Positions 619-23,711 are shown, counted from the stretch's first letter. The stretch is DNA of 41,272 nucleotides from an archaeon (GCA_030699005.1 JAUYLQ010000018.1:1-41272), one strand, 5' to 3'. Notes: generated from the letters alone by a model not told the origin. Translations and numbers: made by a program.

Positions 619-1449
619 ATGAATAAAGAGGATTTTTTAAAAAAAATTGAAATAGAGCTCAAAATTTCCAAAAATTCAGTGTATACTATAAAAAATTACC
701 TTAAATCAAATAAGACACTTCTTGAATTCACAAAGAAAAAACCGGAAGAAGTGAATGAAGACGACGTAAAGGAGTATATTGCCGAAAATTTATCTGAGCG
801 CTCCGCAATTTCAATTATAATGTTTCTTGCCGCCGTAAAATTTGCGTATTCCTCAATTTTGAAAAAAGATTTAACCGCAAACATAAAAAGACCAAAAAGA
901 GAAAAGAAAATTCCGACAGTTTTAACCAAAAAAGAGGTGAAAAGCCTTTTTGATGCTTTAATCTCAAAAAAGTCCAGGCTCATGGTTTCTTTGATGTATG
1001 CGGCGGGTTTGAGAGTTTCAGAACTCTCTTACCTTAAAGTTGAAAATTTGAACTTTGAGGAGAAAATAGGGATGATAAAACAGGCAAAGGGCAAAAAGGA
1101 CAGGACTTTTAATATTCCAACATTTCTTTTTTTAAAATTAAAAAAACAGGTGGAAAGGCAAAAGAAAGTGGGAGAAGTTTACCTTTTTTCGGGAAGAAAT
1201 GGAAAGAAGATGTCTGAAAGAAATCTACAAAAGATTGTAAGAAATGCTGGAATAAAAGCTGAAATAAAAAAAGAGGTTCACTGTCACACTCTTAGGCACT
1301 CTTTTGCAACACATCTTTTAGAAAATGGCACTGACATCCGGCATATACAGGTTCTTCTGGGGCACTCGGACCTTAGTACCACTCAGATATATGCCCATGT
1401 TTCCAACGAAGAAATAAAGAAAATAAAAAGTCCGATTGATACATTATAA
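619..1449 (+). CDS. xerA: Tyrosine recombinase, archaeal XerA/XerCD-like
   Basis: C-terminal catalytic box 'AGLRVSEL...HTLRHSFATHLLENGTDIRHIQVLLGHSDLSTTQIYAHV' fits the R..HxxR..H..Y pattern. An N-terminal core-binding-like region is present. Confidence 0.8.
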   Translation: MNKEDFLKKIEIELKISKNSVYTIKNYLKSNKTLLEFTKKKPEEVNEDDVKEYIAENLSERSAISIIMFLAAVKFAYSSILKKDLTANIKRPKREKKIPTVLTKKEVKSLFDALISKKSRLMVSLMYAAGLRVSELSYLKVENLNFEEKIGMIKQAKGKKDRTFNIPTFLFLKLKKQVERQKKVGEVYLFSGRNGKKMSERNLQKIVRNAGIKAEIKKEVHCHTLRHSFATHLLENGTDIRHIQVLLGHSDLSTTQIYAHVSNEEIKKIKSPIDTL

Positions 1450-3049: not shown

Positions 3050-3165
3050 TTTTTAAAATAACGAGAAAAAATTTCCCGCTAATGCGCTAAGTTGTCTCAA
3101 CTCGCAGGTAAACTTTCGAGATTAGTTTATTTTATAAATGTTTGTGTTATCTGAATTTTAATTAA

Positions 3166-3277
3166 GTGGATTTGCTGAAGGCTGTTAATATTCTTTGGCT
3201 TACCCGCAAAATAAAAACTGGCGTGGATGTGCCGGATGTCACCAATATTCTTTGGTTCGTCCAGCACTCTCGATAGT
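3166..3277 (+). repeat. Two tandem 55-57 nt units, each carrying a copy of the 5' end of tRNA-Leu(CAA) followed by a CCAA-N6-TTGG hairpin/palindrome
   Basis: The degenerate copy GTGGATTTGCTGAAGG is at 3166. The exact copy GTGGATGTGCCGGA is at 3223-3236. The real tRNA starts at 3278. The hairpins are GTTAA-TATTCT-TTGGC (3184-3199) and ACCAA-TATTCT-TTGGT (3241-3256). Confidence 0.85.
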
Positions 3278-3360
3278 GTGGATGTGCCGGAGTGGTCAAA
3301 CGGGAGGGACTCAAGATCCCTTAGCTTATGCTTACCTAGGTTCGAATCCTAGCATCCACA
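3278..3360 (+). tRNA. tRNA-Leu(CAA), class II with a long variable arm
   Basis: Hand-folded cloverleaf: acceptor GTGGATG/CATCCAC, anticodon stem AGGGA/TCCCT, loop CTCAAGA, variable arm TAGCTTATGCTTAC, T arm CTAGG-TTCGAAT-CCTAG, discriminator A. Confidence 0.9.
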
Positions 3361-3454
3361 TAGAATTTTGATTTGAACCATGTCTTGGTCAATTGAATCC
3401 CGAAAATCTTTTGGCATTATCCTTACAAATTTCAAGATGGCAGTAGTTTGAGCC

Positions 3455-3475
3455 AGCATCCACATAGAATTTTGA
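3455..3475 (+). repeat. Direct repeat of the 3' end of tRNA-Leu(CAA) plus trailer
   Basis: AGCATCCACATAGAATTTTGA occurs at 3351-3371 and again at 3455-3475. The preceding AGTTTGAGCC resembles a decayed T arm (GGTTCGAATCC). Confidence 0.85.
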
Positions 3476-7230: not shown

Positions 7231-7932
7231 ATGAAACAAATTCTCAGTTTTATTAAAAATCAATGGGTCGAAATTCTTTTCTGGCTTCAAATAATCATGT
7301 CCTGGATTTACACTATCCCCTTAGTCATTCAAATCATCTCAGGAAAAACTGGTGGCCTAAACCTTGCAACATATTCTATTTACCTGATTTACCTTGGGTT
7401 AAGTCTCTCTTTAGCTTTTTCTTCCTTCTTCTCGCTTAAGAAAGAAATAGGAAACTTGCCAAATTTTCAACAGCAAAAAGCGTTAAAGGCAAGAAAGCAG
7501 ACAATAATCATCTTTTCACAATGGGCCTTTTTAGTAAGCCTTGTCTTATTATTTGGATTAAGAAATATAGTCTGGAAAGAGAGAGATACCGTCATCTGCT
7601 TGATTATCTTAGTTTTATCGCTTTTAACGCTAATTAAATATAAAGGATTGAAAGACCCATATTCAAAAGGGTTTCTTAATGTTTGGTGCAAATCCGTTCC
7701 TCAATTGTGGCTTGGCTATACAATTTTTGCAGACGCTAGTTCAGAGGGCCTTCCATTTTTGACCTTATTTTTTGGATATCTTACTGCTCTTCAAAGATTA
7801 ATTCAAGTCTGGATTGCAGGAAGAAGGGGGATTTGGGATAAGTCAACAAAGGGGCTAATGATGGGAGAAGGATCGAATGTTCTTTCTTGGAGTATTGTAG
7901 TCGTTCTTTGGGTAGTTTTCAGGCTAAATTAA
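7231..7932 (+). CDS. Seven-TM membrane protein, possibly PQ-loop repeat family (3+1+3 architecture)
   Basis: Two PQ-loop-like segments sit at the expected TM1 and TM5 positions: 'IPLVIQIISGKTGGLNLATY' and 'SVPQLWLGYTIFADASSEGLPFLTL'. The ATG at 7231 follows AAAAAGG. The track start at 7225 is a TTG. Confidence 0.45.
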   Translation: MKQILSFIKNQWVEILFWLQIIMSWIYTIPLVIQIISGKTGGLNLATYSIYLIYLGLSLSLAFSSFFSLKKEIGNLPNFQQQKALKARKQTIIIFSQWAFLVSLVLLFGLRNIVWKERDTVICLIILVLSLLTLIKYKGLKDPYSKGFLNVWCKSVPQLWLGYTIFADASSEGLPFLTLFFGYLTALQRLIQVWIAGRRGIWDKSTKGLMMGEGSNVLSWSIVVVLWVVFRLN

Positions 7933-16205: not shown

Positions 16206-16297
16206 TGCGTCGGCCGGGATTCGAACCCGGGTCAACTGGTCACTTCGCAATTTAATTGCCTGGAAGCCAGTTATACTGACCACTGTACTACCAACGC
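16206..16297 (-). tRNA. tRNA-Gly(TCC) with a 20-nt intron at the canonical 37/38 position
   Basis: Acceptor GCGTTGG/CCGACGC, anticodon stem ACTGG/CCAGT, loop CTTCCA|A. The intron is GGCAATTAAATTGCGAAGTG (plus-strand 16241-16260). T arm CCGGG-TTCGAAT-CCCGG. Confidence 0.85.
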
Positions 16298-16798: not shown

Positions 16799-16816
16799 AC
16801 GCCCGAGGCAGGATTT
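16799..16816 (-). repeat. Direct repeat of the 3' end of tRNA-Arg
   Basis: ACGCCCGAGGCAGGATTT occurs at 16799-16816 and at 16867-16884. The second copy is the T-loop/acceptor 3' strand of the real tRNA. Confidence 0.85.
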
Positions 16817-16867
16817 TGCCCTTTAGGGTACACCTTGTGTGGCACCTGCGAGCAGGTTCTTGAAAAA

Positions 16868-16942
16868 CGCCCGAGGCAGGATTTGAACCTGCGACCTACG
16901 CATTAGGAGTGCGTCGCTCTATCCAGGCTGAGCTACCCAGGC
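16868..16942 (-). tRNA. tRNA-Arg(CCT)
   Basis: Acceptor GCCTGGG/CTCGGGC (with G-U pairs), D arm GCTC..GAGC, anticodon stem ACGCA/TGCGT, loop CTCCTAA, T arm GCAGG-TTCAAAT-CCTGC. Confidence 0.88.
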
Positions 16943-16946
16943 AAAT

Positions 16947-17029
16947 TGCGAGGACTAGGATTCGAACCTAGGTAAGGATAAACCACTAGAGCCTTAATCT
17001 AGCCCGTTTGACCACTCCGGCATCCCCGC
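16947..17029 (-). tRNA. tRNA-Leu (class II); the anticodon loop TTAAGGC reads AAG in the canonical register
   Basis: Same length (83 nt) and arm layout as the Leu(CAA) gene. Acceptor GCGGGGA/TCCTCGC, anticodon stem CTAGA/TCTAG. Lies 4 nt upstream of tRNA-Arg. Confidence 0.85.
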
Positions 17030-17050
17030 ATGTACGATGATGATGGATGA

Positions 17051-17087
17051 GCCAAAGAATATTGGCGACCTCCGGCATCCCCGCATG
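17051..17087 (-). repeat. Partial copy of the tRNA-Leu 5' end plus a CCAA-N6-TTGG hairpin, 55 nt upstream of the real 5' end
   Basis: CTCCGGCATCCCCGCATG occurs at 17015-17032 and 17070-17087 (plus strand). The hairpin GCCAA-N6-TTGGC is at 17051-17066. Confidence 0.85.
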
Positions 17088-17147
17088 AATTTCTTATAAA
17101 CCGGCGGTATAAAAAGTTTTATAAACTGGGCTAATCTTCAAAAATTG

Positions 17148-17259
17148 AAGACGGCCCTAGTAGGTTGGAAACACCTGTTCTCTTTCCGAACACAGAAGTT
17201 AAGCTTCCTACGTTACTGGCTTTAGTGTCCGACAAGATGCGAAACCAATAAGTCGTCTT
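17148..17259 (+). rRNA. 5S rRNA (ends approximate, +/- 5 nt)
   Basis: Hallmark 'CCGAACACAGAAGTTAAGC'. Terminal helix AAGACGGC (17148-17155) / GTCGTCTT (17252-17259). TATAAAAA lies upstream at about 17108. Confidence 0.8.
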
Positions 17260-17321
17260 TCATTTTCTTTTAAATTCCTTTGATTAACAAACTTTATATA
17301 TCAAAAAATTTTCAAGTTTGA

Positions 17322-22637: not shown

Positions 22638-23711
22638 ATGATTTCAAAGAAAAGGTTCATCCTAAAAAGAATAATTGATGATACATTTGGAAAGGCTCTT
22701 TTTACGGTTTTTAGTCTAAGAAGTAAAAGATCTATTCCAAAAAAAGTGAATAAGGTTGTTATTTTTAAATTGAGTACTTTAGGAGATTCGCTTCTTTCAC
22801 TCCCCGCAATAAAAAAATTAAAAGAAGACACGGGTGCAAAAATAGTTCTTGTTCATTCGGGAGACAATAAAGTAATCTTTGAAAACCAGGGGTTTATAGA
22901 CGAAAAAATCTTTCTTGATGTCTCAAGAAATAATCTCTTTGGATTTTTAAAGGCATTATTTAAAATAAAAAAAGTGAATGCAGATTTTGCAGTTGATTTA
23001 AGCCATACGGGATACCTTTCTGCAATTTTTTCAATGGTTTCGGGAAAGTTTCTAATTGGATTTTTTAATCCCGATGTCCCATTAAGAAAAGGGTTTTTTG
23101 ACTTTGAATTTCCAATTGGGGGTAATCACATGGTTGCGAATTATTTTGGGATTTTTTCAAAGATAAATAAAAAAGAGATTTTGGGAGAGTTCACCTTAAT
23201 TAGCCCATCTGTAGATAAAAGAGCCCGCCAAAAAATCGAAAAGGTTTTAAGAGGCAAAAAGAATCTCGTCGGGGTTCATCCATGCCATGAAATAAATGAG
23301 AAGTCATGGTCGAAAGAAAATTTTGCAGAGATAATTAATTACATTATTCTTAAAGGAAAGGTTCCAGTAATTCTAGGAAGCCCAAAAGAAAAACCGAAAG
23401 TTCAAAAACTTCTTCAATTAGTCAAAAATAGGAGCAAAATATTGGATTTATCCGGAAAGTTAAATGTGTCTGAAGTTTTCGGATTAATGAAACACCTTGA
23501 ATTTTTCGTTTCAAATGACGGAGGAATAATGCACATTTCTGGATCATTTGGCATTCCGACTCTTGGAATTTTTAGCGCTGAAAACCCAAAAAAATATGCC
23601 CCCTATAACAAAAAAAGTTATGCAATTGATGCAAGAAGAGTTTCAAAAGAAGAGTCGCTCAAGACGGCAAAGAAAGTAATTGATATTTTCTTAAAACAAA
23701 TTAAAAAATGA
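22638..23711 (+). CDS. Glycosyltransferase family 9 (heptosyltransferase-like)
   Basis: 'VVIFKLSTLGDSLLSLPAIKKLKE' and 'FVSNDGGIMHISGSFGIPTLGIFS', the two GT9 signature regions. Confidence 0.75.
   Translation: MISKKRFILKRIIDDTFGKALFTVFSLRSKRSIPKKVNKVVIFKLSTLGDSLLSLPAIKKLKEDTGAKIVLVHSGDNKVIFENQGFIDEKIFLDVSRNNLFGFLKALFKIKKVNADFAVDLSHTGYLSAIFSMVSGKFLIGFFNPDVPLRKGFFDFEFPIGGNHMVANYFGIFSKINKKEILGEFTLISPSVDKRARQKIEKVLRGKKNLVGVHPCHEINEKSWSKENFAEIINYIILKGKVPVILGSPKEKPKVQKLLQLVKNRSKILDLSGKLNVSEVFGLMKHLEFFVSNDGGIMHISGSFGIPTLGIFSAENPKKYAPYNKKSYAIDARRVSKEESLKTAKKVIDIFLKQIKK

Follow-up and report, generated by a model that had tools for sequence, protein, structure and literature searches.

Structured units with partial copies of their own tRNA upstream of tRNA-Leu genes in a DPANN archaeon, a candidate family of 5' leader cassettes

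Locus organisation

The stretch of DNA analysed here, hereafter the window, comprises 41,272 nucleotides (GCA_030699005.1 JAUYLQ010000018.1:1-41272) from a tiny DPANN archaeon of the Pace-/Woesearchaeota type, whose assembly amounts to 570 kb in 60 contigs, with 34% GC and 79% completeness. It carries on its minus strand a tRNA-Leu(AAG) gene preceded by a 55-nt unit made of a partial copy of that tRNA, a small hairpin and an antisense segment, and we refer to units of this family as H1. The 18-mer CATGCGGGGATGCCGGAG is present twice on this strand, at 17087..17070 and 17032..17015, with exact identity over all 18 nt at a period of 55 nt, and the flanks differ at once (GTCG vs TGGT downstream, AATT vs CGTA upstream). 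The upstream occurrence corresponds to nt -3 to +15 of tRNA-Leu(AAG). Read in the direction of the gene, the promoter aaacTTTTTATA (17119-17108) is followed by 23 nt, CATGCGGGGATGCCGGAG, GTC, GCCAATATTCTTTGGC, TCATCCATCATCATCGTA (17050-17033) and CATGCGGGGATGCCGGAG-TGGTCAAACGGG, the last being tRNA-Leu(AAG). The features are as follows:

17108..17119, minus strand: BRE/TATA-like promoter (BRE, TFB recognition element) aaacTTTTTATA; 3' end 23 nt from copy nt +1; 5.2 bits, 99.3rd percentile
17070..17087, minus strand: partial ("decoy") tRNA-Leu(AAG) copy CATGCGGGGATGCCGGAG, nt -3 to +15; identical to 17015-17032; 5' strand of the leader hairpin
17051..17066, minus strand: H1 apical hairpin GCCAA-UAUUCU-UUGGC (GCCAATATTCTTTGGC), from the sequence and a 21-unit alignment
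17033..17050, minus strand: antisense 3' strand of the leader hairpin, UCAUCCAUCAUCAUCGUA; pairs with copy nt 12-14, 6-9 and -1 to 4 in the predicted fold
16947..17032, minus strand: functional tRNA-Leu(AAG) (16947-17029; ARAGORN, Rfam) with the three leader nt CAT of the repeat (17030-17032)

The initial annotation, made from the sequence alone, had reported an exact 18-nt self-copy 55 nt upstream, followed by GCCAA-TATTCT-TTGGC, and this description is correct in every detail. The spacing of "exactly 55 nt" is indeed the period at this gene, although it is merely the length of the unit, single units of relatives measuring 52-59 nt. By estimate, an exact 18-mer should recur within ~100 nt at a rate of roughly 1e-9 per locus, and chance is excluded because the arrangement is repeated at three of the Leu genes here and in numerous relatives. 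At the tRNA-Leu(CAA) gene, the 14-mer CCAATATTCTTTGG is found again at 3242-3255(+) and in a 2-mismatch version at 3185-3198, within the following feature:

3166..3277, plus strand: two tandem H1 units before tRNA-Leu(CAA) (3278-3360); unit A (3166-3222) is decayed, and unit B (3223-3277) holds an exact copy of nt 1-14

Covariation and conservation of H1

The hairpin is real and covarying. Over 21 distinct H1 units, in an alignment that was fitted to the covariance model and so somewhat favours structure (a MAFFT alignment of the first 8 units agrees with it), 86.6% of the cells expected to pair do so, vs 31-51% with slid partners. Seven pairs show changes in both partners, covariation links columns 8-15 with 47-54, and the covariation score exceeds that of every shuffle (0/500). 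In the inner helices 95.7% of the cells are paired, and the exchanges seen are G-C/A-U and C-G/A-U/U-A: the closing pair is G-C in 12 units and A-U in 8, and the third pair is C-G in 17, A-U in 2 and U-A in 1. One unit reads GCUUA/UAAGC in the apical stem, and the consensus of the tip is RCCAA-UAUNYU-UUGGY. The compensatory changes noticed earlier are thus borne out, namely the G-C/A-T alternation of the closing pair and, in the decayed unit A, the T.G wobbles. G.U cells (33) outnumber A.C cells (10), which suggests that the sense strand folds as RNA.

Conservation is uneven along the unit. Four of the six loop positions (1-3 and 6) are invariant in 21/21 units, and pairwise identity is distributed as follows:

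Copy nt 9-14: 88%
Apical stem (both strands) and loop: about 80-82%
Copy, acceptor part: 64%
Segment pairing with that acceptor part: 60%
Final 8 nt ahead of the tRNA: 30%

The H1 core is therefore under constraint, since it is 80-88% identical across genera and the adjacent spacer is at chance level.

Promoter placement and the leader

A 12-nt BRE/TATA matrix was built from 16 unit-free tRNA genes of this genome; their TATA sites reach 6-12 bits, and the TATA end is separated from +1 by a median of 24 nt. At the three Leu loci the best sites score 4.7-7.5 bits (99th percentile or higher) and lie 23-28 nt before the first copy; that of tRNA-Leu(CAA), TTTATAAA at 3131-3138, stands 27-28 nt before unit A. 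The hairpin core scores only -4.8 to -4.0 bits as a promoter, around the 80th percentile of random windows.

These scores bear on the earlier suggestion that CCAA-N6-TTGG is a promoter element or a dimeric protein-binding site. On that account CCAATATTCTTTGG would serve as promoter of tRNA-Leu or as a dimeric site for a DNA-binding protein, with the upstream copy left as an untranscribed by-product. Its AATAT core is indeed invariant and AATATTCT lies at a TATA-like distance, its end being 26 nt from the real tRNA +1, but the core lacks an A-rich BRE and reaches only -4.8 bits with the matrix of this genome, every locus examined has a canonical promoter ahead of the first copy (23-28 nt ahead at the three Leu loci), and no TATA-like word stands at this position in Ser, Phe and other units. 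A nucleic-acid stem also fits better than a protein half-site, because the half-sites change jointly and symmetrically and G.U pairs occur. We consider this explanation very unlikely, and the suggestion is not upheld.

As the only promoter-like site precedes the first copy, transcription should start on the decoy, and the unit would form a 5' leader. The unit at 17033-17087 lies between the promoter (17108-17119) and the tRNA start (17029) on one strand, as a leader would. An RNase P RNA gene is present (RF00373, 133.6 bits, C11:1645-1960), so such a leader can be removed.

Predicted fold of the leader

The 58-nt leader has a minimum free energy of -19.2 kcal/mol (z = -2.55), and 1/200 shuffles are equally stable. 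It is predicted to fold into a single hairpin of three tiers. The apical tier is GCCAA/UUGGC; the middle tier pairs GGA (copy nt 12-14) with UCC; in the basal tier GAUG (copy nt 6-9) faces CAUC, and AUCGU is the partner of the first nucleotides. The partial tRNA copy would accordingly be the 5' strand of the hairpin, and what was presumed to be a spacer its 3' strand. The small hairpin first noticed is genuine, but it is only the apex of a longer one whose 5' strand is the tRNA copy. Each unit ends just before the tRNA in a poorly conserved, largely unpaired linker, which is clearly A/C-rich in the Ser units.

Thermodynamic folding of the leader together with the tRNA (17030-17087 plus tRNA) gives two nearly equal states. 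The decoy pairs with the antisense segment in the first, leaving the tRNA properly folded; in the second it pairs with the 3' strand of the tRNA, the real 5' end being taken up by the antisense segment. Two folds of this kind, near-isoenergetic as predicted, would suit an RNA device of benefit to the host, in which switching between decoy:antisense and decoy:3' strand pairing gates or times tRNA maturation. The leader would then be specific to a tRNA family and its apical hairpin would bind a trans factor, for instance a processing protein, or else leucyl-tRNA synthetase or a different tRNA-Leu-specific enzyme, in which case the tip would mimic the long variable arm. The conserved core, the invariant loop positions, the strict tRNA-Leu context described below and the Ser genes with a conserved module of their own all speak for such a device; its distribution, considered in the following sections, speaks against it.

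Comparison with known RNA classes gave no identity for the unit. An Rfam search brought only tRNA and 5S to the gathering score, and nothing in 17030-17087 even at E <= 1. A C/D box guide RNA on either strand, with C (RUGAUGA) and D (CUGA) boxes around a 10-12-nt antisense guide, was rejected, the boxes not being conserved among units: the GAUGAUGA word occurs only on the opposite strand of the tRNA-Leu(AAG) unit and in no other H1 unit, and no CUGA follows the antisense segments.

Distribution of H1

A covariance model (R1) built from 8 H1 units was searched against 151 sampled genomes of the order and matched 10, all from one family and spread over 6 genera; every match lies directly upstream of a tRNA-Leu gene (AAG, CAA, TAA or TAG), in leader position and never within a tRNA as an intron would. 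An exact-pattern scan across GTDB (about 185,000 species genomes) gave 11 matches in contigs labelled Woesearchaeota, Pacearchaeota or Nanoarchaeota, ten adjoining tRNA-Leu and one being an orphan. Just 1 of the 32 matches in bacterium-labelled contigs adjoins tRNA-Leu (L110, labelled "Parcubacteria"), and that contig is probably a misbinned DPANN one. The genomes with H1 thus number at least 15, from 6 or more genera, and the unit almost always immediately precedes tRNA-Leu, so that the absence of the copies from relatives, which the initial annotation had named as a reason to abandon its view, is not what is seen. The public Pacearchaeota metagenome-assembled genome RIFOXYB1_FULL_34_12 belongs to the genus of the window (its sequence L096 equals L067). 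An orphan, decayed H1 unit occupies L102 3627-3688, where no tRNA gene lies within 200 nt downstream.

A device serving the host is hard to reconcile with so patchy an occurrence (10/151 genomes of the order), with unit-free orthologous loci in close relatives, or with the persistence of units whose copies have decayed (L003, L095).

Co-evolution and turnover of the units

In 13/20 H1 units all 14 nt of the copy agree with the downstream tRNA, across 10 different acceptor sequences, and copy nt 1-8 show on average 0.7 mismatches to their own tRNA vs 2.6 to other tRNAs. That each copy matches its own tRNA is therefore the usual state (13/20 fully identical), although some units show decay or mismatch (L003, L095, L070). 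The antisense segment changes too. A second Leu insert family has a copy ending in GGGGAUGCCGGA with antisense CGGCAUC in genome G009, and a copy ending in GGGUGUGCCGGA with antisense CGGCACA in the sister species G007, so that CGGCAUC has given way to CGGCACA alongside a change at tRNA nt 6-7. For the Ser family (5 sampled genomes and G007) the anti-acceptor segment fits its own copy best, with a mean duplex energy of -8.6 kcal/mol vs -4.9 with other copies (permutation p = 2e-4). At positions where the copy departs from the tRNA, it is the copy that the antisense segment tracks: U2 of Ser(GGA) pairs with A, and the Arg unit L018 behaves alike.

Units also appear to move between genes. In G015 the unit before Leu(TAA) bears a Leu(AAG)-type copy and is 100% identical to the unit of the Leu(AAG) locus (L070 vs L075). 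About 96 nt of L070 (G015:C3 ~81400) match the two-unit leader L075 (G015:C3 ~160300) in circularly permuted order, and the Leu(AAG)-type decoy of L070 mismatches its own Leu(TAA) tRNA at 2 positions. Given this exception and the decayed copies, identity of the copy is common and non-obligatory, and units pass between paralogous loci. CAUCCA(C), which is the 3' acceptor strand in tRNAs of the Leu(CAA) type, is present in the H1 units of Leu(AAG) and Leu(TAA), and this sequence fossil suggests that H1 arose at a Leu(CAA)-type gene. The AAG and TAA units of G000 are more alike than its AAG unit is to the G003 ortholog, a pattern of sequence likeness that points to intragenomic conversion between the two.

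The orthologous Leu(AAG) locus has been occupied in different ways. In the window it has these neighbours:

16868..16942, minus strand: tRNA-Arg(CCT), 4 nt downstream of tRNA-Leu(AAG)
17147..17261, plus strand: 5S rRNA gene, divergent from the Leu-Arg unit (Rfam RF00001, 55.2 bits)

The two tRNA genes are probably co-transcribed. The gap between the Leu leader and the 5S gene is 59 nt (17088-17146) and contains overlapping TATA-like words on both strands (TTTATAAA, TTTTTATA, TTTATAAG), whose sequence suggests back-to-back promoters. Beside 5S, the Leu(AAG) locus has H1 in G000 and G007, unrelated other inserts of 83-107 nt in G015, G013, G004 and G014, and no unit in G001, where the promoter lies at the normal distance from the tRNA. 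G003 and G019 have H1 before Leu(AAG) too, the G003 gene not being beside 5S; Leu(AAG) of G022 lacks a unit, its 5S neighbourhood lying outside the stretch examined. Such unrelated inserts at one locus in sister species again count against a host device. Tandem identical units occur as two H1 in G019 and two Arg(CCT) 3' units in G007, and L064 and L065 each stack two different unit families. The initial annotation had offered a recurrent mechanism or maintenance by selection or gene conversion as alternatives; both apply: units form tandem arrays and are exchanged between paralogs, and the pair changes are consistent with selection on pairing.

These comparisons also bear on whether the upstream copy might be the true first exon, with an intron reaching to nt 15 of the downstream copy and removed by the splicing endonuclease. 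In favour of this, the upstream copy is often the partner of the 3' acceptor strand in equilibrium folds, and the lineage gains and loses tRNA introns within the genus, as two of them vary among sisters: tRNA-Gly(TCC) at 16206-16297 (-) has a ~20-nt intron here and none in several sister genomes, and tRNA-Arg(CCT) has a canonical 48-50-nt intron in G005 and G004 and none here (loci L011 and L019). Yet by inspection no bulge-helix-bulge motif can be drawn at the junctions, where the flanking helices fail apart from CCGG self-pairing. Upstream copies have decayed at G007 Leu(AAG), L095, L013 and unit A of the window with the downstream gene intact, so the upstream piece is not required as an exon, and in the first two and unit A the copy could no longer form an acceptor stem. 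In relatives whose copies differ, it is the downstream one that fits the 3' acceptor strand better, giving Watson-Crick pairs where the upstream one gives wobbles. An uninterrupted tRNA comes after the unit, and T5-6 terminators stand between the 3' units described below and their tRNA. We regard an intron as extremely unlikely.

Self-copy units at other tRNA genes

All 25 tRNA genes of the 60-contig assembly were scanned for self-copy units, and 10 of them have such units on the 5' or 3' side. Units on the 5' side occur at seven genes, namely Leu(AAG), Leu(CAA) (two units), Leu(TAA), Ser(TGA), Ser(GGA), Ser(GCT) (two units) and Phe, and mirror-image 3' units at six, namely Phe, Gly(GCC), Arg(CCT), Ser(TGA), Leu(CAA) and Gln(TTG). 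In G007, a sister species with a better assembly, about 13/31 tRNA genes have units. The phenomenon had been described for tRNA-Leu and class II tRNAs; it is not restricted to these, as Phe, Arg, Gly and Gln genes bear 5' or 3' units as well. With so many tRNA families involved, no logic specific to one aminoacyl-tRNA synthetase holds, which counts further against a host device, and we rate that explanation as rather unlikely overall.

The design is common to these genes. A 5' unit begins with a copy running from tRNA nt -1..-3 to +14..+22, with its break in the D-loop, continues with a 37-95-nt insert and a 7-12-nt segment complementary to part of the copy, and ends in a short, often A/C-rich linker before the real tRNA. 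The 3' units have the mirror layout: tRNA, often a T-run, an antisense T-arm segment, the insert, and a copy of the last 10-24 tRNA nt. Two lie in the window:

3361..3475, plus strand: tRNA-Leu(CAA) 3' unit; the insert starts with the antisense T-loop (GATTTGAACC), and the tRNA 3'-end copy is at 3455-3475
16799..16866, minus strand: tRNA-Arg(CCT) mirror-image 3' unit; 50-nt insert at 16817-16866, exact copy of the last 17 nt plus T at 16799-16816

The Arg(CCT) insert starts with a T-run (T5), followed by CCUGC-UC-GCAGG and further hairpins, and the unit is kept in at least 5 sister genomes (G007, where it is doubled in tandem identical form, G022, G016, G004 and G013). The Leu(CAA) insert belongs to a 3' family, GATTYRAACC ... 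GAATCCCGAAAATCTTYTGGC ... AGATGRCAG ... AGTTTG, shared with Gln(TTG) (contig C60 near 23130-23230) and only loosely resembled by the Ser(TGA) 3' insert (C45 near 7580-7700); each of the three ends in its own tRNA's 3' end. The Leu(CAA)/Gln(TTG) family holds a fossil T-arm piece, TCGAATCCCG, that fits neither tRNA. At tRNA-Thr(TGT) (C9:1014-1133 (-)) there is no self-copy unit; its best TATA word stands 37 nt before +1 and is followed by an A/C-rich stretch, caaaccaaaaacaacaacc, resembling the end linkers of the Ser units.

Could the units be miniature mobile insertions near tRNA gene ends, which duplicate their target and survive only if an intact gene is regenerated? The duplication would be either a long target-site duplication or a templated sense-antisense-sense copy. 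An insert family that Leu(CAA) shares with Gln(TTG), and at a greater distance with Ser(TGA), and that ends each time in the 3' end of the local tRNA speaks for such insertion, and the Leu(CAA)-type fossil CAUCCAC in Leu(AAG) and Leu(TAA) units, the different inserts of sister species at one orthologous site and the breakpoints in D-loop and T-loop agree with it. The duplication is nevertheless of variable length (14-25 nt), and no terminal inverted repeats were seen. A BLAST-short search of the genome found no insert copies away from the cognate tRNA loci, no reverse transcriptase was found, there being two tyrosine recombinases only, and the wrong-paralog copy of L070 fits recombination and not target duplication. 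Inverted repeats, a fixed duplication length and many kinds of site, the marks of a miniature inverted-repeat transposable element or transposon, are thus absent, the inserts occurring only at cognate tRNA genes. We think this explanation unlikely. An RNA-mediated origin was set aside on the same lack of a reverse transcriptase, which is weak evidence in a 79%-complete genome.

A second kind of insertion would leave attL/attR attachment-site scars of viruses or plasmids that integrated at tRNA genes by way of a tyrosine recombinase and subsequently disappeared by near-complete deletion. Integration classically shows itself by direct repeats that are partial tRNA copies (PMC9897764), a direct repeat of a tRNA segment is present here (18 nt, 17070-17087 and 17015-17032), and tyrosine recombinase genes occur in the genome. 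One of these lies at 919-1410 (+) in the window (PF00589, 151 bits, 280-aa frame), 1.8 kb upstream of tRNA-Leu(CAA), and is probably a chromosomal Xer-type enzyme; the other is on contig C49, and neither adjoins an insert. Against scars of this kind, the inserts measure 37-95 nt (37 nt here) and have no open reading frame, no mobile-element gene lies in or near them, and none of the 10/25 affected tRNA genes has a kb-scale element. They are moreover conserved, structured, covarying and arranged in tandem arrays, and integration at the 5' end would sever a gene from its promoter. We give this explanation very little credence.

Discussion

We conclude that the feature is genuine and conserved, and that it represents a single case of a class found across the clade. 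We propose with moderate confidence that H1 is a co-transcribed, structured 5'-leader cassette which arose by partial self-duplication, is kept by selection on pairing together with gene conversion, and is removed by RNase P. Under this model transcription would start on the decoy copy, and the hairpin would close co-transcriptionally once its 3' strand has been made, so that the decoy is already sequestered when the real tRNA appears; RNase P would cut at tRNA +1 after the tRNA has folded, freeing the hairpin. The cassette would stem from a partial self-duplication of the gene 5' end in a sense-antisense-sense layout, its number growing and shrinking through slippage between direct repeats. 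Recombination through the common UGCCGGA segment may transfer H1 among Leu isoacceptor genes, and gene conversion may hold the copy similar to the local tRNA. Selection would preserve the pairing, since a decoy or antisense segment left without its partner would cause the tRNA to misfold; that loss of either should harm tRNA folding would explain such selection. The sense-antisense-sense layout, the D-/T-loop breakpoints and the mirror symmetry would fit a duplication of the template-switch type at gene ends, with slippage, gene conversion and paralog exchange coming after it.

Several observations weigh against this model. Equilibrium folding shows no insulation of the tRNA for H1, the pairing probability between decoy and 3' acceptor strand being 0.63-1.0, so the model needs kinetic, co-transcriptional folding or tertiary contacts of the tRNA; with the decoy competing at equilibrium, folding order or tertiary structure must decide the outcome. 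In silico, insulation is supported for the Ser units, whose acceptor-stem probability is 0.63-0.70 with the native leader vs 0.05 with a shuffled one, and unsupported by equilibrium folding for the H1 and Phe units. Insulation alone does not explain the invariant loop positions or the 80% conserved apical stem, and the four invariant positions suggest that some factor also recognises the hairpin tip. Simple slippage accounts neither for the left edge of the duplication, fixed at -1..-3, nor for 3' units that are exact mirror images, and the 3' insert family common to Leu and Gln, and distantly Ser, indicates a real insertion mechanism. As to folding of the sense strand, 15/33 G.U cells stem from one inherited U.G pair. 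RNA runs matched only metagenome contigs of other organisms, covering conserved tRNA/5S parts and not the leader. On balance we lean slightly towards a self-perpetuating passenger over a device of benefit to the host.

Position-specific retroelements at tRNA gene starts are known in eukaryotes as yeast Ty3 and the Dictyostelium TRE. Like the units described here, they target the region where tRNA transcription starts and leave the gene working; unlike them, they are eukaryotic, protein-coding and dependent on reverse transcriptase (none was found in this genome), with short target duplications. The tyrT locus of E. coli has tandem 178-bp repeats downstream of tRNA-Tyr, each with the last ~19 nt of the tRNA. 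Its tandem units likewise repeat one tRNA terminus, with unequal recombination as the likely route of origin and expansion, but it is a single bacterial locus, on the 3' side only, and lacks the hairpin-antisense design and the multi-gene, multi-genus family.

In archaea and bacteria, integrative viruses, plasmids and islands leave behind attL/attR, which are partial copies of tRNA genes (PMC9897764). These scars also have an intact tRNA gene beside a direct repeat of one end with foreign DNA between, whereas our 37-95-nt inserts are non-coding, folded, covarying and specific to tRNA families, and the units sit between promoter and gene with an antisense copy of the repeat, form tandem arrays and hold no integrated element. 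Disrupted archaeal tRNA genes, with non-canonical bulge-helix-bulge introns, split or permuted tRNAs and intron transposition (PMC4033280, PMC3978253), share with the present units short structured inserts that are gained, lost and exchanged among tRNA genes, and complementary leader sequences that pair with tRNA parts. They differ in that the mature tRNA here is uninterrupted, there is no bulge-helix-bulge, and the extra tRNA piece is redundant. Nanoarchaeum equitans transcribes leaderless tRNAs, with a promoter at fixed distance and a start at or a few nt from +1 (PMC10100707). It belongs to a related small-genome lineage, and unit-free genes here have the same spacing (median 24 nt), whereas the present host has an RNase P RNA and its cassette genes a predicted leader of 55 to about 130 nt, starting with a look-alike of the tRNA. 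The layout is apparently undescribed in the literature surveyed, which covers kb-scale integration scars, introns and split or permuted tRNAs.

More tentatively, H1, the Ser module and the mirror 3' modules may together form an undescribed class of structured RNA cassettes resident at the tRNA genes of DPANN archaea. On this possibility the cassette would itself build a sense-antisense-sense copy of the tRNA terminus and would spread by dedicated means aimed at the D-loop or T-loop, and a specific factor would recognise the apical hairpin. It would then be either a new miniature mobile element of tRNA leaders and trailers or a tRNA-specific maturation switch.

If the cassette model is true, about 40% of the tRNA genes of these ultra-small archaea (10/25 here, about 13/31 in the sister species) would not be near-leaderless, and their precursors would begin or end with a hairpin-locked look-alike of their own tRNA terminus. 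This would change the substrates of RNase P and of the 3' processing enzymes in organisms presumed to be minimal in RNA processing. Partial copies of this kind can also mislead tRNA annotation and the calling of att sites and prophages in DPANN genomes. The units would furthermore provide a natural system of concerted evolution among tRNA, decoy and antisense segment, and a route by which tRNA genes could accept insertions without being destroyed, which bears on the origins of tRNA introns and split tRNA genes.

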